The notes: generated by a model from the sequence alone, not told the origin. A DNA stretch of 64,000 nt from Candidatus Parcubacteria bacterium (GCA_025999335.1 AP024681.1:78642-142641), one strand, 5' to 3'. Shown: positions 55 through 64,000, numbered from the stretch's first letter. Made by a program: numbers and translations.

Positions 55-543
55 TTAAATTTTTAATAAGTATATTATACTTTTTGTTTTAGCTTTCAAT
101 TTTTTAAAAAATTTATGAGAGTAAAAATTATCTACTTTAATTTCTATTCTAAAAAATTGCCTTCGTGTTTTAGATAATTTTTTCTTGAAATATTTTTTTA
201 AATATTTAATCACTTTAATGCCTATTCCCTGATCTCTAAATTGTTTATCAAGATAGATCAAACATAAATCTACATACTTATTACTAATATAAGTATGCAC
301 CATACCAATATTAGAATTATTTTTTTTAATAATAAAATATAAATTATTTTTATCTTTAAATTTGGTTAGTAAAATTTTAGCTAATTTTATTTTATTGAGC
401 TTAATATCTTCAAATTCATAAAAATAATTATAAATGTAATCAATTAAATTATTTAATAACTGTTTATTTCTGCGAACTTCCGACAATAATATTTTTTTAA
501 CAATAATATCAGAATTATTTAATTGCTTTTGATAATTTTTCAT
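55..543 (-). CDS. GNAT family N-acetyltransferase
   Basis: 162 aa; acetyl-CoA binding motif RDQGIGIKVIKYL (Q/RxxGxG) typical of GNAT fold. Confidence 0.55.
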   Translation of the reverse strand: MKNYQKQLNNSDIIVKKILLSEVRRNKQLLNNLIDYIYNYFYEFEDIKLNKIKLAKILLTKFKDKNNLYFIIKKNNSNIGMVHTYISNKYVDLCLIYLDKQFRDQGIGIKVIKYLKKYFKKKLSKTRRQFFRIEIKVDNFYSHKFFKKLKAKTKSIIYLLKI

Positions 544-37110: not shown

Positions 37111-37677
37111 CTATTGGGTAACTCGCCTAACATATTCACCTGTTTCAGTATTTACTTCAATAACATCTGATTCTTCAATGAATAATGGAGCTTGAATTTC
37201 CGTACCTGTTTCTAAAATAACCGGTTTTGTTCCAGGTGTCTCTCGTCCACCCTTAATGCCTGGCGGCGCCGAGATTACTTTAAGATGAATCTTAAGAGGC
37301 ATTTCAATATTAATTAGTTTTTCTTCAAAAAATATCCCGGTTACAGTATCATTTTGTTTTAAAAAATTTGCTTTTGTGCCTAAAATATCTTTTTTAAGTT
37401 CAAATCTTTGAGAGGGATTGTTTGGAGAACAAAAATAAAAAATATTATTTTTTGAGTACAAAAATCTTATATTTTCTCTTTCAATCTCAGCTTCTTCAAT
37501 ATCGTCACCAGCATGAAAAGTCTTAGTTATTACTTTGCCCGTGATTAAATTTCTTAATTTTGCTTGAGTTGTTGATTGTCCTCTACCTTTAAAAACATAA
37601 TTAGTCTCAATAACTTCGTAAGGTTCTTTATTCAAAACTATTCTTAATCGTGGTTTTAAATCTGTATGTTCTAACAT
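37111..37677 (-). CDS. efp: Elongation factor P
   Basis: 188 aa; KPRLRIVLNKEPYEVIETNYVFKGRGQSTTQAKLRNLITGK matches EF-P KOW domain with modified-Lys loop. Confidence 0.85.
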   Translation of the reverse strand: MLEHTDLKPRLRIVLNKEPYEVIETNYVFKGRGQSTTQAKLRNLITGKVITKTFHAGDDIEEAEIERENIRFLYSKNNIFYFCSPNNPSQRFELKKDILGTKANFLKQNDTVTGIFFEEKLINIEMPLKIHLKVISAPPGIKGGRETPGTKPVILETGTEIQAPLFIEESDVIEVNTETGEYVRRVTQ

Positions 37678-37770: not shown

Positions 37771-38091
37771 ATGATTTCTTTTGACGATTTTCAAAAAATT
37801 GATTTAAGAGTTGCTAAAATTCTTAATGCAGAAAAAATTGAAAATAGCGATAAATTAATCAAATTAATAATTGATCTCGGATCAGAAAAAAGAACAATTG
37901 TTGCTGGTATTGGTAAAAAATATACTCCCAAGGATCTTATTAATAAACTTGTTGTTATCGTTGCTAACTTAGAGCCAAAAAATATTAAAGGCATTCAAAG
38001 CGAAGGAATGCTTTTAGCAGTTGATAGTCAAAATGGACCTGTTTTAATAACTCCTTTAGAGGAAGTTGGAGTTGGCGAAAAAGTAAAATAA
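37771..38091 (+). CDS. tRNA-binding protein (Trbp111/CsaA, MetRS C-terminal-like OB fold)
   Basis: 106 aa; FQKIDLRVAKILNAEKIENSDKLIKLIIDLG...EGMLLAV. Confidence 0.7.
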   Translation: MISFDDFQKIDLRVAKILNAEKIENSDKLIKLIIDLGSEKRTIVAGIGKKYTPKDLINKLVVIVANLEPKNIKGIQSEGMLLAVDSQNGPVLITPLEEVGVGEKVK

Positions 38092-38193: not shown

Positions 38194-38952
38194 CTAAACG
38201 ATAGGCGTTAAAACTTCATTTTTGTTATCTAAAATAACTATTGTTGCCTCAAAATGAACGCCCACCTTACCATCAGAAGTTCTAAAAACATACTCATCAA
38301 CTTCTTCGGCAACATCTGAAGAAAAGGATGCCATTGGTTCAATGGCTAGAAACATTTTTGGTTTTAACTTTGGTCCTTCATTGGGATTACCAAAATTAAG
38401 AACCTGCAAATCTCCATGAAGATAATTACCAATATCATGACCACATAAATTTTTAATAGCCTTAAAACCAGCATCTTCAATCGTACTTTCAATAACCCAA
38501 CCAATATCACCTAAAGTGTTATTAGGCAAAGCTACGGCAATAGCATTTTTTAAGGCTTGACAGGTAACATCAATTAATTGTTTAACATCTTTGCTAACCT
38601 CACCAATTGTTAAAGTTAACGCCGCATCTGCGTAAAAACCTTTATACTTGACGCCCAAGTCAAGTTTAACAACATCGCCGTCTTTAATAAATTTATTCTT
38701 TTCTGGATAACCATGAACTAAAATATCATTTAAAGAAACACATATATTATAAGGATAAGGTTTGTTTGCAAACGGTGCTTGGTAATTTTTAAATGCTGGT
38801 TCACCGCCATAATCTTTAATCACAGTAGCAGCTAAATCATCAATCTGACTTAATTCCATACCTTCTTTAATTTCTTTCTTTAAGGTTAATAAACTTTGGG
38901 TTAAGATAAACCCTGCTTGCTTCATAAGATTGTATTGAAAATCAAAATCCAT
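38194..38952 (-). CDS. map: Methionine aminopeptidase type I
   Basis: 252 aa; HGYPEKNKFIKDGDVVKLDLGVKYKGFYAD metal-ligand block. Confidence 0.85.
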   Translation of the reverse strand: MDFDFQYNLMKQAGFILTQSLLTLKKEIKEGMELSQIDDLAATVIKDYGGEPAFKNYQAPFANKPYPYNICVSLNDILVHGYPEKNKFIKDGDVVKLDLGVKYKGFYADAALTLTIGEVSKDVKQLIDVTCQALKNAIAVALPNNTLGDIGWVIESTIEDAGFKAIKNLCGHDIGNYLHGDLQVLNFGNPNEGPKLKPKMFLAIEPMASFSSDVAEEVDEYVFRTSDGKVGVHFEATIVILDNKNEVLTPIV

Positions 38953-38971: not shown

Positions 38972-41900
38972 CTATAAAAATATACTTATTTTTACTTTGC
39001 CAAAGTTTTCGTAAATAAATTCTTTCTCGGCGATAATTTTTTTCATTTTTGTGCTAATGGCTGTTTTAGTTCTTGCTAAAATATTTTTCATCCTTTGTTG
39101 CAAAATATTCATTAATAAACCGCTAGCTTCAATATTTAAAAAAACAACTTCTTTAGGTGTTAATTCAGCATCTTGTCGTAAATCTTGAATAAAACGAACA
39201 AAGTCATTTTCAATACCTATAATTTTTAAATCATCGGTAATAGTAAAATCAATTTTAATTTTTTCTTGTTGCTTAACATCAATTTTAATATCAACAACAT
39301 TAATTTCTTCTTTCAAAATATCAAGCAATTCTTCTGAAAACTTAGTATTTAAAGTAACTAATTTTAACGGCTGTCGGACTTTTAAACCCTTTTCTTTACG
39401 TAAACGATGAACTTCAGCAGCAATTTCTCTTATTTTTTCCATTTCTTCTAATAATATTTTTTCTTTTAAAGTAAGTTTTAAAGGCAAGCTTAATCTTTCT
39501 AAATGAATGCTTTCTTTTAAAGAATAGCGTTTGTTTAAATCATTTTTAATTTCTTGATAAAAATATTCACTAACAAACGGTGTTAAAGGAGCTAACATTT
39601 TTAGCAATTGGAAGAAAAAAATCTCAAAATTAACCATTGCTGAAAAAAATTCATTCTTGTTTTTTGGATTTTGAAAGCGATCTCGTGATCGTCGTAACCA
39701 CCAACGTGAAAAATCGCCTACTAATTCATAAATAACACGAGTTGCCTTATGCACATTAAAGTCAGTCATATAGTTATAATACCGAAGGTAACTTTCCTTA
39801 AATTTAGCTTCAAACCATAAATCAATAACTTCCTTTTTAGGTGAGCCTTTAAAGTTAAATTTTTGGTAACTATAATAAAATTTATAAAAATTAAAAATAT
39901 TAAAAAGCAAACCAAAAAAATCATTTTTGATTTTTAACAATTCTTTCGCGTCAAAACTTTTATTATCATAGATTTCATTAAGATATAACAAATAAAATCT
40001 CAAGGGATCAGCTCCGTATTGATTAATAATTTCCATAGGATCAGTAACATTGCCCAAAGATTTTGACATTTTAATACCCTTTTCATCTAAAACAAGTCCG
40101 CTAACAATAACATTTTTATAGGGTGCTTGTTTTTTAATTATTGAGCTAATCACCAATAAAGTATAAAACCAACCTCGCGTTTGATCAATGCCTTCAATAA
40201 TAAAATCTAAAGGAAATATTTTGTTGCTATCTATTTCACTTTTATTGGCAAAAGGATAATTATTGGCTGCAAAGGGAACGCAACCTGAATCAAACCAAAT
40301 ATCAGCAATTTCACTAATCCTCTCGTAAACTCCTCCACATTGACATTGCCATTTTATATTATCTACAAAAGGACGATGTAAATCTAGCTCGCCTTCCTTA
40401 TTACGAGGATAGGTAATAAATTTAACATTCCTTACTTCAGCTGTTTTATATTCTTTTAAATCCTGCCTACGTATTGTTTTTAAATTTAAACCTTTCATTT
40501 CAGCTTCGAGCATCATTAATACAGCGCCATGGGAAACAATCAAAATATTTTTGTTCTTATGTTTAGCTTCCAGCTCTAATAAAAAGTTTATTGCGCGACG
40601 ACGAACATCGTCAAAACTTTCACCATTGGGAAGCTTTTTAAAAAAATCTTTTTTATCTTCTAATCGATCTAACAAATATTCTTCTAAATCTCGAGAACTT
40701 TTACCCTGAAAAAAACCAAGATCTAACTCTCGCAAACGCTCATCAACAAAAAATGGTTTTTTAATTTCGTCGGCTATAATCATTGCTGTCTGTTTAGTTC
40801 TTAAAACAGGCGAAGTATAAATAATATCAATTTTGTTTTTTAAATTTTTAGCTTGTTTTTTAACATCGCTAACTCCTTTCCTCGTCAACGGATTAAAAAA
40901 TAACTCAGGATAAGAGGAAAGCATATTTTTAACAAGAGACAAAGAACCACCATGTCTCATTAAGTAATAATTATTGTTGGCTGCTGGTAAAAATTTAGCC
41001 AAATCATTTAAACTACCTATAACTTCAATCTTTTGACATTGATGACAACGCCAAATAGGCAAAGGTATGCCCCAAAATCTTGTTCTTGATAAATTCCAAT
41101 CTTTACCTTCTTTAATCCATTCATAAAAACGATTATAAGCGCTCACAGGAATCCATTTGACAATTTTATTATTATTAACAATATCTTTTTTAATTTTAGA
41201 AACTTTAATTACCCACGATCTGTTGGCTTTATAAATTAAAGGCTTTTTGCAACGCCAACAATGGGGATAATTATGTTCATAAGTTTCTTCTTTAAATAAC
41301 AGATTCAATTTTTTTAGAGAATCTAAAATTAAACGATCGCTGTCTTTAAACAATAAACTCTTTGTTTTAATAACCAATTCCTCATTATTGCTATTTTGAT
41401 TTTTATTAATTTTTATATCAATCACAAATTGACCCTGATCATTAAGATAATCAAGCATACCTAAATTGTTTTCTAAACCTAATTTAAAGTCCTCTTCTCC
41501 ATAAGCTGGCGCTATATGAACAATACCCGTACCCTCACCTTCAACGACAAAATCACCTTTATAAACTTTATATAAATTGCTTACCTTTTGAATGTCTTTA
41601 TAAAATTTATTATTAGTGTCATCAATTTTATCATTAAGCAAATCAAATAATGGTTTATAGCGTCTACCAATTAAATCTTTACCTCTTTTTTTACGAATAA
41701 TAGGATAATCAAATTTTTTATGTGACCAAATCAAACCATTGTCAGTTTTATGCAAAAAATAATCAAAATCAGCATTAACAGCTAAAGCAAGGTTGCCCGG
41801 CAATGTCCACGGCGTTGTTGTCCATACTAATAAATATTCTTTATTATTTGTTCTCTTGTTCTCGTCAATAAGTTCGAATTTAATATAAGCGCTTATATCT

Positions 41901-42496
41901 TGAACATTTTTATACGCATCCGGCATACCTAATTCAGCTTGAGCCAAAATTGTTTCACAACGAAAACAATAAGGGTAAATTTTCTTTTCTTCGCTTAAAA
42001 GTCCTTGATTGTAAATATTTTTTATCACCCACCAACAACTCTGCATATAAAAAGGATCAAAAGTAATATAAGCTTTTTGATGATCTATCCAAAACCCCAT
42101 TTTTTCATCCATATTTTCCCAAACATTTTTAAACTGAGTTACCAATGATTTACATTCTTGATTAAAATTATCAATACCATAATTAAGAATATCTTTTTTT
42201 GATTGAAAACCTAATCTTTTTTCTGTAGCTACTTCTATAGGCAAACCATGGGTATCCCAACCAGCACGTCGAGGCGTATAATAACCAATCATAGAAAAAA
42301 ATCGTAAAATAGAATCCTTATAAACACGTGTTAAAAAATGGCCCATATGAGGTTTATCGTTGGTATAAGGCGGACCTTCTAGCCAATTAAAAATTTTACT
42401 TTTATTGTTTAACTTATTTAAAAGTAAAGATTTCTCAAAAATTGAATTATTTCTCCAAAAATTAAGAATTAATTTTTCAATTGATTTAATATCCAT
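38972..42496 (-). CDS. ileS: Isoleucyl-tRNA synthetase carrying an inserted histidine-phosphatase (PGAM-like) domain
   Basis: 1174 aa; HMGH, editing-domain TTTPWTLPGNLA, KMSKSLGN; insertion of about 190 aa beginning LMRHGGS... through YTSPVLRTKQTAMII to ILIVSHGAVL (RHG and SHG catalytic His motifs) lies between the WRCHQC and WQCQCGG zinc-knuckle Cys pairs. Confidence 0.85.
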   Translation of the reverse strand: MDIKSIEKLILNFWRNNSIFEKSLLLNKLNNKSKIFNWLEGPPYTNDKPHMGHFLTRVYKDSILRFFSMIGYYTPRRAGWDTHGLPIEVATEKRLGFQSKKDILNYGIDNFNQECKSLVTQFKNVWENMDEKMGFWIDHQKAYITFDPFYMQSCWWVIKNIYNQGLLSEEKKIYPYCFRCETILAQAELGMPDAYKNVQDISAYIKFELIDENKRTNNKEYLLVWTTTPWTLPGNLALAVNADFDYFLHKTDNGLIWSHKKFDYPIIRKKRGKDLIGRRYKPLFDLLNDKIDDTNNKFYKDIQKVSNLYKVYKGDFVVEGEGTGIVHIAPAYGEEDFKLGLENNLGMLDYLNDQGQFVIDIKINKNQNSNNEELVIKTKSLLFKDSDRLILDSLKKLNLLFKEETYEHNYPHCWRCKKPLIYKANRSWVIKVSKIKKDIVNNNKIVKWIPVSAYNRFYEWIKEGKDWNLSRTRFWGIPLPIWRCHQCQKIEVIGSLNDLAKFLPAANNNYYLMRHGGSLSLVKNMLSSYPELFFNPLTRKGVSDVKKQAKNLKNKIDIIYTSPVLRTKQTAMIIADEIKKPFFVDERLRELDLGFFQGKSSRDLEEYLLDRLEDKKDFFKKLPNGESFDDVRRRAINFLLELEAKHKNKNILIVSHGAVLMMLEAEMKGLNLKTIRRQDLKEYKTAEVRNVKFITYPRNKEGELDLHRPFVDNIKWQCQCGGVYERISEIADIWFDSGCVPFAANNYPFANKSEIDSNKIFPLDFIIEGIDQTRGWFYTLLVISSIIKKQAPYKNVIVSGLVLDEKGIKMSKSLGNVTDPMEIINQYGADPLRFYLLYLNEIYDNKSFDAKELLKIKNDFFGLLFNIFNFYKFYYSYQKFNFKGSPKKEVIDLWFEAKFKESYLRYYNYMTDFNVHKATRVIYELVGDFSRWWLRRSRDRFQNPKNKNEFFSAMVNFEIFFFQLLKMLAPLTPFVSEYFYQEIKNDLNKRYSLKESIHLERLSLPLKLTLKEKILLEEMEKIREIAAEVHRLRKEKGLKVRQPLKLVTLNTKFSEELLDILKEEINVVDIKIDVKQQEKIKIDFTITDDLKIIGIENDFVRFIQDLRQDAELTPKEVVFLNIEASGLLMNILQQRMKNILARTKTAISTKMKKIIAEKEFIYENFGKVKISIFL

Positions 42497-43589: not shown

Positions 43590-45791
43590 ATGGAAAATAT
43601 CAATAATCAAAAAAAATTCTCTATCAAATATATTATCGAACAAAAACCCTTGGAAGAAAAAACAACTCAAAATGTTTTTGATGAATGGTGCCGAATCAAC
43701 GATTCAATCATACCTATAGTGGTTGACCGTCAACAATGGGAGAAAATAAATAAAAAAGATATTTTTAAAAAACTACCTAACGGAAAAATTATTTTAACAA
43801 TACCTGAAGATTTACATTTATGGGAAATGGTTGGTATTATGGAAATAGTTGATCATGAAACTTTTAAAAATAAACCTGAAAAACAAAAAGAAGCGAAAGA
43901 AAGGATAGAAAATCTTGGTAAACTTTTTTGTCAAATTGGTATTTACATTGCAAAACGAATTAATAAAATCAACAAAGGCAAAAAAATAGCCGCAGCTTTA
44001 GCGGAAGAACTTTACCAATATGGCCAATCTCTCATTAAAGGTAAACAGTCGCAAGAAACTGTTGAAATTCAAGATTTAGCATCTTTGCCATTAACTTCTG
44101 AAGAAACAAAAGCGATTGACCGTTTTTTAGCTGGCGATAGTTTGCATACCCGTAGATATAAAAAACTTATAGCAAAACAAAGAATAAATTTTTCAAAAAC
44201 AAATGATGAAATTGAAGAAGAAGAAAGGCAAAGAACATTAGCCCAATTTTTTCGCGTCGCTGAAAAAGCTTTTCTCTTAAAAAATAAAAGCGACAAAGGA
44301 GAATTATACAGAGGAGATCATAGTTTAGCTCCTTGGGAAGATTACACACCCATCCATAATGCTTTCATTCAAAAAGTTGAGCAAGCATTAAGACAAAAAA
44401 TAGAAATTCCCCAAGAAGAATTTGAAATGTCTATTTTGCGTCGTGCTTTTGAAAATATCGCTAATGAAATTAGCAAAAACCCGTCGCGTTTAACAATAAT
44501 TATCAATAAATTTTTAGCTAAAATCGGATTTAAACTAATTCAAGGAAAACAAAAACTTAAAGATTTATTAAATATTGAACAACTAAAAAAAGAATTAAAG
44601 ACAGCTTACCAAAGCGAAGATTTAAAAAGAATTAGCGAAAAAGAAATAGAAATTGCTAGCAAAATTCAACGAGCAGTTTCAAAATTTCCCTATAAAATAT
44701 CTGGCCACAACCCTGCTCAAATACTTATAGAACGTTACATTAATTGTGTTGGAGCTACAATTTTAGGAGGAATTTTTATGAAAGAAGTTGGTTTAAATTA
44801 TTTAGTCGGCGGTTTACCAATGCATTCCATAATTATTTTAGTTACTGCTGATGGACGACTTTTTTTATATGATATGCAACTAACGTCTGCTTATGAAATA
44901 AAAAATAAAAATTTACTGCCAATCAAACAAGAAAAAATAACCGTCCAAAATATCGTTGATTTTGCTCAAGATCCAGATAATATTTATGATAATTTATTAA
45001 TAAATATTATTACCCCACATGGCATACAAATAGATGAAGATTCAAAGGATTCACAAAATAAACCAGTGATGCTTAGTCTTTATAAACCTGAATATGGACA
45101 AAGAATGCAAATACTTTTTAACACCGCGGATGCCTTCATAGAATCAGGTCGTCTTAATGAAGCTGCAAAGATATATGAACAATTAATCGCCGCTGACACA
45201 AAATACCCTTATACTTATCTAGGCTTAGGGAATATTTACGCTCATAAAAATAACTATAATAAAGCGATTAAAATGTATAGAAAAGCTTTAGCTATTAATC
45301 CTAATTTTGATACAGCTTATTACTATTTAGGTAATGTGCTTTTTAAAATTAGTAATTACAAAGACGCTGTTCAAGCATATCAAAGAGCTGTAGCTCTTAA
45401 TAATAATTTTTACTTAGCTTATTGCCGCTTGGGTATTGCTCTTTTAAAATTAAAGCGTTATGAAAATGCTATCTTTGCCTTACGTCGCGCAATAAATATT
45501 AAAGAAAATGACTGCCTACCTTTTTATTATTTAAGCGTAGCTCTTGTAAAACTTGAAAGGTATAAAGAGGCAATTGATGTATGTAAAAAAGCAATTCATA
45601 TTAATCCTAAATTTTATTATTCTTATTTCCAGTTAGGTTATGTTTTATATAAAATAAAAAATTACAAAGAAGCGCTTGAAGCTTTAAATAATTTTCTTCA
45701 ATACGCTGATAAGACAAAAGATAGCACTTTAATAAATAATGCGAATATGATTATAAAACAAATAGAAAATTTAAAAAATAATCAAAGTTAA
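43590..45791 (+). CDS. TPR-repeat protein with N-terminal unknown domain (possible transglutaminase-like Cys-His-Asp core)
   Basis: 733 aa; C-terminal about 250 aa contains at least 6 canonical TPR units (YLGLGNIYAHKNNYNKAIKMYRKALAINPNF...); middle has NCVGATILGG...PMHSIIILVTADGRLFLYD. Confidence 0.55.
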   Translation: MENINNQKKFSIKYIIEQKPLEEKTTQNVFDEWCRINDSIIPIVVDRQQWEKINKKDIFKKLPNGKIILTIPEDLHLWEMVGIMEIVDHETFKNKPEKQKEAKERIENLGKLFCQIGIYIAKRINKINKGKKIAAALAEELYQYGQSLIKGKQSQETVEIQDLASLPLTSEETKAIDRFLAGDSLHTRRYKKLIAKQRINFSKTNDEIEEEERQRTLAQFFRVAEKAFLLKNKSDKGELYRGDHSLAPWEDYTPIHNAFIQKVEQALRQKIEIPQEEFEMSILRRAFENIANEISKNPSRLTIIINKFLAKIGFKLIQGKQKLKDLLNIEQLKKELKTAYQSEDLKRISEKEIEIASKIQRAVSKFPYKISGHNPAQILIERYINCVGATILGGIFMKEVGLNYLVGGLPMHSIIILVTADGRLFLYDMQLTSAYEIKNKNLLPIKQEKITVQNIVDFAQDPDNIYDNLLINIITPHGIQIDEDSKDSQNKPVMLSLYKPEYGQRMQILFNTADAFIESGRLNEAAKIYEQLIAADTKYPYTYLGLGNIYAHKNNYNKAIKMYRKALAINPNFDTAYYYLGNVLFKISNYKDAVQAYQRAVALNNNFYLAYCRLGIALLKLKRYENAIFALRRAINIKENDCLPFYYLSVALVKLERYKEAIDVCKKAIHINPKFYYSYFQLGYVLYKIKNYKEALEALNNFLQYADKTKDSTLINNANMIIKQIENLKNNQS

Positions 45792-62917: not shown

Positions 62918-62965
62918 TAGTTTCCAACTAAAATTAAAAATTAATAATTAAAACCATTAATTATG

Positions 62966-63036
62966 TGTCCCTAGGAGGAATCGAACCTCCATATCAGCCT
63001 CCGCAGGGCTGCGCTTTTCCTTTAAGCTATAGGGAC
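62966..63036 (-). tRNA. tRNA, anticodon read as GCG (Arg), 71 nt, no encoded CCA
   Basis: hand-folded cloverleaf: acceptor GTCCCTA/TAGGGAC, D-stem GCTT/AAGC, anticodon stem CAGCC/GGCTG with loop CTGCGGA, T-arm GGAGG-TTCGATT-CCTCC, discriminator A. Confidence 0.6.
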
Positions 63037-63745: not shown

Positions 63746-63844
63746 TAAATTCTGCTTATTAATTTATTAGAATGTAAAATTAATATCAACTCAAAACTGA
63801 TTAGTAAATAATAAACTTAAAAACATTAAAGTATTTTATCCAAG

Positions 63845-63918
63845 TGGACTCGAGGGGATTCGAACCCCTGACCTCCGGTGTGCAAAACCGGTGCTCTAGC
63901 CAACTGAGCTACGAGCCC
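63845..63918 (-). tRNA. tRNA-Ala (anticodon TGC), 74 nt, no encoded CCA
   Basis: GGGCTCG acceptor with G3:U70, anticodon loop TTTGCAC, T-loop TTCGAAT, discriminator A. Confidence 0.8.
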
Positions 63919-63933
63919 TTCTTAAAAATAAAG

Positions 63934-64000
63934 CGCCCCCAACCGGAATCGAACCGGTATTTTCACCTTGAAAGAGTGATGTCCTAACCTTTAGACGATG
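63934..64000 (-). tRNA. tRNA-Glu (anticodon TTC), 5' end truncated by window edge
   Basis: D-arm TCGTCTAAAGGTTAGGACA typical of tRNA-Glu, anticodon loop CTTTCAA, T-arm ACCGG-TTCGATT-CCGGT, acceptor 3' half TGGGGGC, discriminator G. Confidence 0.6.

Follow-up and report, generated by a model that had tools for sequence, protein, structure and literature searches.

An ileS gene with a phosphatase domain inside it

The minus strand of a 64,000 nucleotide stretch of DNA from a Candidatus Parcubacteria bacterium, one of the tiny-genome Patescibacteria (GCA_025999335.1 AP024681.1:78642-142641; this whole stretch is called the window below, and positions are counted from its first nucleotide) carries ileS, the gene for isoleucyl-tRNA synthetase (IleRS, an essential enzyme of translation), as a 1174 amino acid (aa) open reading frame (ORF) that runs without interruption in the ORF listing. 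An earlier note on this DNA had claimed that this single gene contains a complete branch-1 histidine phosphatase domain, with its RHG...SHG signature, inserted in the zinc-knuckle region of an otherwise intact IleRS, and the motifs and coordinates that it gave are all present in the sequence as stated (Table 1). We describe here the extent of the insertion, its spread among related bacteria and the functions that it might have.

The host protein was identified as follows: It matches the NCBIfam ileS equivalog model TIGR00392 with 769.5 bits (cutoff 621.4), the match being split by the insert, and its best matches in the PDB are the T. thermophilus IleRS (1ILE, E = 5e-178) and then the P. megaterium IleRS2 (8C8U/8C8V). 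The Pfam tRNA-synt_1 match (E = 4e-112) is likewise divided into two stretches with the phosphatase domain between them. The N-terminal IleRS segment contains the first Rossmann half, the CP1 editing domain, the CFRC/CWRC first zinc site and the beginning of the second half of the Rossmann fold; the GTGxVHxAP-type motif of CP1 is read in the translation as EGTGIVHIAPAYGEED, in a region that aligns to the CP1 of 1ILE and to 1WK8. The C-terminal segment contains HRP/WFDSG, KMSKS, the anticodon-binding domain (Anticodon_1 of Pfam at residues 892-1047, 71.5 bits, cutoff 25.1, E = 9e-20) and the type-2 C-terminal region, and DUF5915 of Pfam scores slightly under its cutoff (23.3 vs 27). The two cysteine pairs of the second zinc knuckle are present and align with those of the T. 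thermophilus enzyme, whose zinc ligands we take to be C461, C464, C502 and C504, consistent with the 1ILE alignment. Every family feature that was tested is thus found, the HMGH, TTTPWTLPGN and KMSKS motifs are in place around the insert, and on this evidence the host protein is a bona fide IleRS, the only IleRS homologue within the window.

Table 1. Positions of the ileS gene, its parts and motifs, and the tRNA genes of the window
Feature	Residues	Position	Strand	Basis
ileS ORF, type-2 IleRS with inserted phosphatase domain	1174 aa	38972..42496	-	ORF listing, TIGR00392, PDB matches
N-terminal IleRS segment	1-500	40997..42496	-	tRNA-synt_1 stretch residues 10-501; aligned to 1ILE 12-477
HMGH (class I HIGH motif)	50-53	42338-42349	-	motif position
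TTTPWTLPGN editing motif	226-235	41792-41821	-	motif position
WRCHQC (C484/C487), second zinc knuckle, first Cys pair	482-487	41036..41053	-	aligns with WVCQAC of T. thermophilus IleRS
Inserted segment (linker, phosphatase domain, return linker)	501-703	40388..40996	-	gap in 1ILE alignment
His_Phos_1 (PF00300) domain proper	511-680	40457..40966	-	Pfam 114.3 bits, E 7.4e-33
LMRHGGS	512-518		-	motif position
R514/H515 (RHG)	514-515	40949-40957	-	catalytic residues
LTRKG	537-541		-	motif position
YTSPVLRTKQTA, holds catalytic R565	560-571	40784-40819	-	motif position
Catalytic E590	590	within 40715-40735	-	motif position
ILIVSHGAVL, with H656 in SHG	651-660	40526-40534 (SHG)	-	motif position
C-terminal IleRS segment	704-1174	38972..40387	-	aligned to 1ILE 488-807
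WQCQCGG (C718/C720), second zinc knuckle, second Cys pair	716-722	40331..40351	-	aligns with ACACGG of T. thermophilus IleRS
KMSKS	809-813	40058-40072	-	motif position
tRNA-Arg(GCG)		62965-63036	-	
tRNA-Ala(TGC)		63844-63918	-	
Third tRNA, cut by window end		63934-64000 (-)		

The window protein resembles the solved type-2 synthetases (1ILE, 8C8U/8C8V) in its HIGH, KMSKS, CP1 editing, two zinc knuckle, Anticodon_1 and type-2 C-terminal features, and it aligns with 1ILE end to end except at the insert. There the alignment breaks at query residue 500 (T. thermophilus 477) and restarts at query residue 704 (T. thermophilus 488), so about 203 residues that include a whole enzyme domain stand in place of the ~10 residue tip of the second knuckle, a net insertion of about 193 aa. 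None of the solved IleRS structures in our PDB comparison has a domain at this loop. The GC content of the inserted DNA (0.30-0.33) is equal to that of the remainder of the gene.

The inserted domain is a branch-1 histidine phosphatase

The His_Phos_1 match lies far above the gathering cutoff of PF00300 (21.7 bits) and spans profile positions 2-171 of 194, and the catalytic pentad is complete in the window copy, with H515 of RHG as the nucleophile, the two arginines R514 and R565, E590 as the proton donor and H656 as the distal His. When the insert alone was modeled with AF2 from an 84-sequence alignment, it folded confidently (pLDDT 92.4, pTM 0.90) into the classical histidine phosphatase fold, and a Foldseek search with this model found small branch-1 phosphatases with probability 1.00, TM-scores of 0.72-0.79 and 21-30% identity; PspA ranked first, and CobC, the riboflavin-pathway HFP, PhoE and Rv2419c were also found. 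By threshold, catalytic pentad and predicted fold, then, the insert is a bona fide PF00300 member. It is like PhoE of G. stearothermophilus (1H2E) and PspA of H. thermophilus (4IJ5/4IJ6) in fold, pentad and size (~190-210 aa), and the CobC alpha-ribazole phosphatase (6E4B, 6NRU), Rv2419c (4PZ9) and HFP (9MMH) share these three properties with it. Those enzymes are proteins of their own, whereas the window domain is nested inside another enzyme, and the small branch-1 phosphatases are acidic, whereas the clade from the candidate phyla radiation (CPR) to which the insert belongs, above all its stand-alone members (below), is strongly basic.

The domain does not fall within any of the characterized subfamilies that it resembles, as neither the insert nor a stand-alone relative exceeds the cutoff of any NCBIfam subfamily model. 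The model for the phosphoglycerate mutase dPGM_arch (NF038349) gives 83.9 bits against a cutoff of 225, and E590 is followed by LDLG and not RHYG; the substrate residues specific to dPGM enzymes are the E-R-H-Y-G that begins at the catalytic Glu. The CobC model (TIGR03162, cutoff 162.9) gives 83.3 bits for the insert and 100.4 for a stand-alone relative, the PspA model (NF045917) gives 64.6 bits against 350 in spite of the top Foldseek rank of PspA, and the SixA model gives 42 against 74.5 for the stand-alone relative. We have set aside a glycolytic (dPGM) role, for which both thresholds and substrate residues are wanting, and also a link to the riboflavin or cobalamin pathways, as the likeness to their enzymes is at the level of the fold only.

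The architecture is widespread and maintained in Patescibacteria

A scan of GTDB species-representative genomes with a three-sequence alignment found the same insert in ten Patescibacteria species (labeled Parcubacteria, Pacebacteria/Paceibacter, Minisyncoccia or "Patescibacteria group"). In nine of these ten independently assembled species it lies in an uninterrupted ORF of 1162-1190 aa; in the tenth, L004, a 2.7 kb contig ends before the ORF does. Two archaeal IleRS proteins from the same scan (L013 and L014) have a short loop and no insert. An exhaustive phmmer search with the insert and both of its flanks against 1.84 billion representatives of 50%-identity clusters gave 133 clusters at E ≤ 1e-30, most of which share the architecture; the majority of the best 150 matches, proteins of about 1100-1270 aa, cover the whole query and have the domain in the same place. 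Among 151 sequences analyzed, 132 have the knuckle-site insert, one (P0173) has its phosphatase at another site only, two (P0122 and P0181) have a pair of phosphatase domains and about six are free-standing proteins of ~190 aa.

The R-H-R-E-H pentad is complete in 126 of the 141 domains that could be scored, and ten more differ from it only by an E to D change; its five residues are invariant in the ten close orthologues. The Gly of RHG varies among the latter (G, C, T or E): within the segment of residues 516-521 (about 40934-40951, minus strand) and its counterparts in L003-L008, it is C, T or E in relatives. Mean pairwise identity among the orthologues is 64-65% in the catalytic core of the synthetase, 56% in the insert and 50% in the anticodon-binding/C-terminal part. 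Both Cys pairs of the second knuckle are kept in just 49 of 97 scorable insert-bearing proteins, and the second zinc knuckle is, to judge by this comparison, dispensable in such IleRS proteins. These data show that a large group of Patescibacteria, of the Parcubacteria/Paceibacteria type, has had this architecture for a long time and that selection has maintained it, and we regard this architectural and evolutionary part of our explanation as nearly certain.

Could an assembly chimera or a hidden frameshift nevertheless have joined a separate phosphatase gene to ileS? Relatives with split genes do occur in the databases (P0002, P0005, P0008 and P0009), but they are from assemblies in which other genes (thymidylate synthase, M48 peptidase, argS) are broken too. 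In the window the IleRS sequence before and after the insert is in one reading frame, the nine full-length ORFs above are from species-representative metagenome-assembled genomes, and about 130 cluster representatives have the insert between IleRS flanks on one chain. A chimera or frameshift peculiar to the window is excluded because the same architecture is present in other genomes and in most clusters, and we give an artifact of this kind practically no chance. The domain scans, the structure-based boundaries, the confident fold and the many orthologues all bear out the earlier note in its central claim of one gene with a true domain insertion.

A word-indexed search also returned short proteins of 223-392 aa with both PF00133 and PF00300, and we considered whether these might be naturally split synthetases. 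They were rejected as such, as they are from frameshift-ridden contigs with the IleRS pieces in different frames. In four metagenome contigs (L001, L002, L026 and L027) frameshifts are pervasive, with thyA, the M48 peptidase gene, argS and ileS broken, and the "PhoE" and 368-aa "IleRS" calls on them are fragments, not true small genes. In L027, argS and ileS also have an IS605 OrfB-like gene and a Cas1 gene between them.

A second insertion site

The knuckle is not the only place at which the phosphatase has entered IleRS. P0173 (1273 aa), a complete IleRS by its Pfam and NCBIfam matches (TIGR00392, 947 bits), has its sole phosphatase domain past the catalytic core and KMSKS and ahead of the anticodon-binding domain. 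Two other proteins, P0122 (1419 aa) and P0181 (1379 aa), have two histidine phosphatase domains each, and in P0122 one is at the zinc knuckle and the other after KMSKS. The two insertion sites flank the WFDSG...KMSKS nucleotide-binding segment.

Besides a phosphatase at the knuckle site and a GNAT domain at its C terminus, a further IleRS-like protein, P0080 (1066 aa), has an in-frame domain of a REP-associated tyrosine transposase (IS200-like; residues ~326-472) inside CP1. Its TIGR00392 score is just below the cutoff (597.6 vs 621.4). The protein may be an IleRS decorated several times over, or the call may be chimeric or truncated.

A stand-alone phosphatase gene beside ileS

The nearest relatives of the insert outside IleRS are free-standing CPR phosphatases of ~190 aa (636 matches at E ≤ 1e-10), whose identity with the query segment is 42-46% and reaches as much as 48% over aligned domain columns. 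Named members are from Staskawiczbacteria (e.g., P0238 of Candidatus Staskawiczbacteria) and Nealsonbacteria, and two of these phosphatases carry the JGI label "isoleucyl-tRNA synthetase". Such proteins (e.g., P0238, P0141 and P0304) belong to the same clade as the insert and share with it a K-x-N-N-K/R-Y sequence ahead of RHG and a W/Y-P-E-x-F-x-N-P-L-T motif. They differ from it in being separate products, in being more basic and in having a companion IleRS that lacks the insert, and they are always encoded beside ileS. All seven loci on long contigs have the gene block (pyrH)-argS-phosphatase-(0-1 gene)-ileS-(small ORF)-recO-CLIPPER-like gene, in which ileS encodes 818-966 aa without the insert, and in several of the seven the stop codon of argS overlaps or adjoins the start codon of the phosphatase gene. 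The wider neighborhood is translation-related (infC-rpmI-rplT, smpB, argS and ileS). Three insert-bearing loci of a more distant group have the order argS...ileS(+His_Phos_1)-recO-CLIPPER-like-proS-like, with no separate phosphatase gene.

When a gene is present between the phosphatase gene and ileS, it encodes a NUDIX protein, a CYTH protein or a protein of unknown type. The recognizable proteins of this slot are nucleotide or polyphosphate hydrolases, namely a 148-aa NUDIX protein (L015, 5587-6033) and a 196-aa CYTH (triphosphate tunnel) protein (L017, 5570-6160); the ~200-aa unknowns of L024 (5700-6311) and L021 (4382-4966) have no Pfam or NCBIfam match.

The association of the free-standing gene with ileS seems to outlast the replacement of the synthetase genes themselves. 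L015 and the pair L019/L020 have identical gene order, and their IF3, SmpB and phosphatase are 93%, 86% and 69% identical, respectively, whereas ileS and argS are 39% and 30% identical, which points to replacement in place of both synthetase genes (xenologous displacement) with the phosphatase between them kept. A neighbor-joining tree puts the embedded and free-standing CPR domains together and Bacillus-type outgroups apart, with the free-standing genes as one tight clade nested among the embedded domains (the tree is unbootstrapped and its sampling uneven). It allows either direction of change, entry of a neighbor gene into ileS or release of the domain, and we claim neither; release could have come about, for instance, on displacement of the resident gene by an ileS without the insert. 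Whichever the direction of the event, selection keeps the phosphatase with IleRS. Since the phosphatase is either fused with or adjacent to IleRS (the "Rosetta-stone" argument), the two activities are predicted to be functionally coupled, and an active phosphatase coupled to IleRS is what we consider probable.

Charge of the phosphatase and its possible substrate

The above comparisons argue that IleRS and the phosphatase work together, but do the proteins themselves carry any sign of what is dephosphorylated? The free-standing CPR phosphatases have a median isoelectric point (pI) of 9.85 and a net charge of +17, and the window insert has values of 9.65 and +11; the median values for embedded copies are 7.15 and 0, and the outgroup small-molecule phosphatases have a pI of 5.9 and a net charge of -4. 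The Lys-rich background of CPR proteins was controlled by comparing proteins encoded in the same loci, where the net charges per 100 aa are as follows: SmpB +10.2, IF3 +8.7, phosphatase +7.7, pyrH product +4.9, ArgRS +3.3, IleRS +1.3, NUDIX -1.7 and CYTH -4.6. The gain in charge of the stand-alone clade takes in the cap region beside the active site (+2.1, vs -3.8 in the outgroups). In charge the phosphatase therefore groups with the RNA-binding proteins SmpB and IF3, a suggestive pattern that would fit a polyanionic substrate such as RNA.

Phosphorylated tRNA 3' ends are documented in bacteria, where toxSAS toxins pyrophosphorylate tRNA at its 3'-CCA end and so block aminoacylation (10.1101/2021.04.30.441581; PMC11559606). 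Because of the charge pattern and these documented ends, we favor a phosphomonoesterase that acts on tRNA or RNA ends. The domain would be an active phosphomonoesterase that works through a phospho-His515 intermediate, and its target in cis would be a phosphorylated end of an RNA that IleRS handles. Its likeliest substrate would be a tRNA(Ile) that cannot be aminoacylated owing to a 2'/3'-(pyro)phosphate, or a phosphate derived from a cyclic phosphate, on its 3'-terminal ribose, and removal of the phosphate would restore a chargeable 3'-OH. The free-standing form would owe its RNA affinity to its own very basic surface, and in the embedded form tRNA binding could come from IleRS, with the charge requirement relaxed. 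We put the probability of this best explanation as a whole (the architecture, the coupled activity and the tRNA- or RNA-end mechanism) at roughly 0.4, and we advance its substrate, taken by itself, as a tentative proposal. The earlier note had thought of a phosphorylated nucleotide, of a tRNA intermediate and of a moonlighting metabolic enzyme retained by fusion; the evidence shifts weight somewhat toward an RNA- or tRNA-linked role among these ideas and proves none of them.

A number of points weigh against this explanation. Our literature search did not find an RNA-end substrate for this superfamily, and we know of no branch-1 histidine phosphatase that acts on RNA ends; every one of the nearest solved structures is that of a small-molecule phosphatase whose active site is covered by a cap. 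Since Lys is abundant in CPR proteomes in general, the charge argument is no more than suggestive. The explanation does not say why IleRS in particular should need tRNA-end repair, and the single-sequence AF2 model of the full-length protein (pLDDT 31) does not place the pocket relative to the tRNA 3' end. The argS/recO neighborhood is not retained in the window clade: blastp found no stand-alone phosphatase, NUDIX, CYTH, argS or recO gene in the whole window or in L003-L012. Finally, the window copy has neither the usual Glu after RHG nor the Asn at H+6. These belong to the superfamily motif RHGExxxN, whose auxiliary phosphate-pocket residues are common and not defining; the window copy has G517 (H+2) and L521 (H+6) at positions that are E or Q in 116 of 141 relatives and Asn in 122 of 140, respectively. 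This lowers our confidence in full activity, not in PF00300 membership. Together with the variable RHG Gly it suggests that the phosphate pocket is altered or relaxed in the window sub-clade, whose activity may be changed or weakened.

The same residues (G517, L521 and the C, T or E found for the RHG Gly in close relatives) could instead mean that, at least in the window sub-clade, the module is non-catalytic, a replacement or extension of the knuckle or a sensor of phosphate or another ligand that modulates IleRS. The loss of knuckle cysteines in about half of the insert-bearing proteins suggests that the insert can take over a structural role. Retention of R, H, R, E and H in the window, in the ten close orthologues and in most domains overall would be unexpected of a purely structural element, however, and RH[S/A/T] variants occur in active members of the superfamily such as PGAM5, so we regard a non-catalytic role as improbable.

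The main rival is that the domain is an ordinary phosphomonoesterase of the PhoE/CobC/PspA kind with a soluble substrate, such as a nucleotide 2'-, 3'- or 5'-phosphate, a product of the NUDIX or CYTH enzymes, a nucleotide by-product on the KMSKS side of the active site, phosphoserine or possibly the pyrophosphate released at the KMSKS loop, and that its co-expression or fusion with IleRS serves stoichiometry, genome economy or local removal of a by-product. The capped small-molecule phosphatases nearest to it in structure (at the TM-scores above) and the families that head its NCBIfam likenesses (dPGM_arch, CobC and PspA) speak for such an enzyme, as do the nucleotide or polyphosphate hydrolases of the neighboring slot (NUDIX in L015, CYTH in L017) and the position of both insertion sites on either side of a nucleotide-binding segment. 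Yet the CobC, dPGM and PspA thresholds are all missed. Strict linkage to ileS through the replacement of ileS (L015/L019) is not what one expects of a generic metabolic enzyme, nor is insertion into IleRS at two different places; the charge of the stand-alone form is also like that of RNA-binding proteins and unlike that of NUDIX, CYTH and the pyrH product of the same loci. On balance we think a small-molecule substrate less likely than not.

A phosphatase that guards the synthetase itself has also to be weighed. Toxin or regulatory kinases would place inhibitory phosphates on IleRS (or, for the stand-alone form, on ArgRS and IleRS), for instance close to the KMSKS loop, and the phosphatase would take them off and so act as a built-in antidote. 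HipA-family kinases inactivate GltX and TrpS by phosphorylation, and branch 1 includes the protein phosphatases SixA, PGAM5 and Sts-1; the conserved pentad, the two insertion sites that bracket the KMSKS-bearing segment and the linkage of the stand-alone gene to two class I synthetase genes would all suit an enzyme of this type. However, none of the neighborhoods examined contains a kinase partner, we know of no phosphorylation of IleRS, the cap is typical of enzymes with small substrates and not of the open site of SixA, and the stand-alone protein falls short of the SixA model, all of which makes a protein substrate quite improbable. Both this and the non-catalytic role are less likely than the small-molecule or nucleotide phosphatase.

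Other features of the window

The genes next to ileS in the window encode an M48 peptidase (upstream) and a methionine aminopeptidase (downstream). Two genes from ileS, at 37771-38091 (plus strand), is the gene for a 106-aa tRNA-binding protein (PF01588 tRNA_bind, Trbp111/CsaA-like, E = 3e-28), another small tRNA-handling module near the synthetase gene, which is flanked by efp (37111-37677, minus strand) and map (38194-38952, minus strand). On the other side, at 43590-45791 (plus strand), a gene divergent from the htpX-like M48 peptidase/ileS/map gene string encodes a 733-aa protein with a C-terminal array of tetratricopeptide repeats (residues ~510-715) and ~500 N-terminal residues without a Pfam match. 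Apart from the three tRNA genes in Table 1, the 64 kb window contains no rRNA gene and no other Rfam family.

Relation to known systems and significance

Other composite enzymes offer partial parallels to this architecture. The NCBIfam model NF040702 (ileS_w_GNAT) shows that IleRS proteins with an additional enzymatic domain have been catalogued before, but that domain is a GNAT N-acetyltransferase instead of a histidine phosphatase, and the window protein scores 263 bits against its cutoff of 1999 and has no GNAT Pfam match; a literature search for a paper on GNAT-containing IleRS gave nothing relevant. Among enzymes of nucleic acids and tRNA ends, the Rv2228c-type RNase H/acid phosphatase (NF005567) and the E. 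coli CCA-adding enzyme with its HD domain have a fused phosphatase or phosphoesterase. They are functional analogies, in the sense of a tRNA-handling enzyme joined to a phosphate-removing module, but their partners are different, they are end-to-end fusions and not loop insertions, and the HD fold is unrelated; the insert scores 66.9 bits with NF005567, below its cutoff of 326. The earlier note's author was not aware of any description of the IleRS-histidine phosphatase architecture, and our full-text literature search also found no paper on it. The architecture is, on the other hand, abundant in public sequences that are automatically annotated as IleRS, which qualifies the remark in the note.

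Aminoacyl-tRNA synthetases belong to the enzymes that have been studied most intensively. It is rare for the catalytic body of a bacterial IleRS to hold a second catalytic domain from another enzyme class, and this particular case is apparently undescribed. The evidence for functional coupling is unusually strong in that fusion at two sites, duplicate copies and conserved gene adjacency all occur; from the two sites, the duplicates, the maintenance in over a hundred deep lineages of Patescibacteria and the adjacent free-standing gene we therefore argue for a real coupling of isoleucyl-tRNA synthesis with dephosphorylation. The loop of the zinc knuckle is also a natural and permissive point for domain insertion in a class Ia synthetase, which has practical value.

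If the tRNA-end reading is taken one step further, the embedded phosphatase and its sibling between argS and ileS might constitute a tRNA-end "healing" activity built into the aminoacyl-tRNA synthetase, which would clear the CCA end of 2'/3'-phosphate or pyrophosphate. Ribotoxins could leave these groups behind, or phages, hosts or competitors could set them with enzymes of the toxSAS type, and the same enzyme could charge the repaired tRNA at once. We offer this as an unlikely extension of our reading; if it were true, this would be the first case of an aminoacyl-tRNA synthetase that repairs tRNA or counters toxins by itself, and the superfamily of phosphoglycerate mutase-like histidine phosphatases would gain its first RNA-end substrate. 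Identification of the substrate could bring to light a new step in translation, one of quality control or of repair, or else a new means by which ultra-small symbiotic bacteria defend or economize their translation apparatus.

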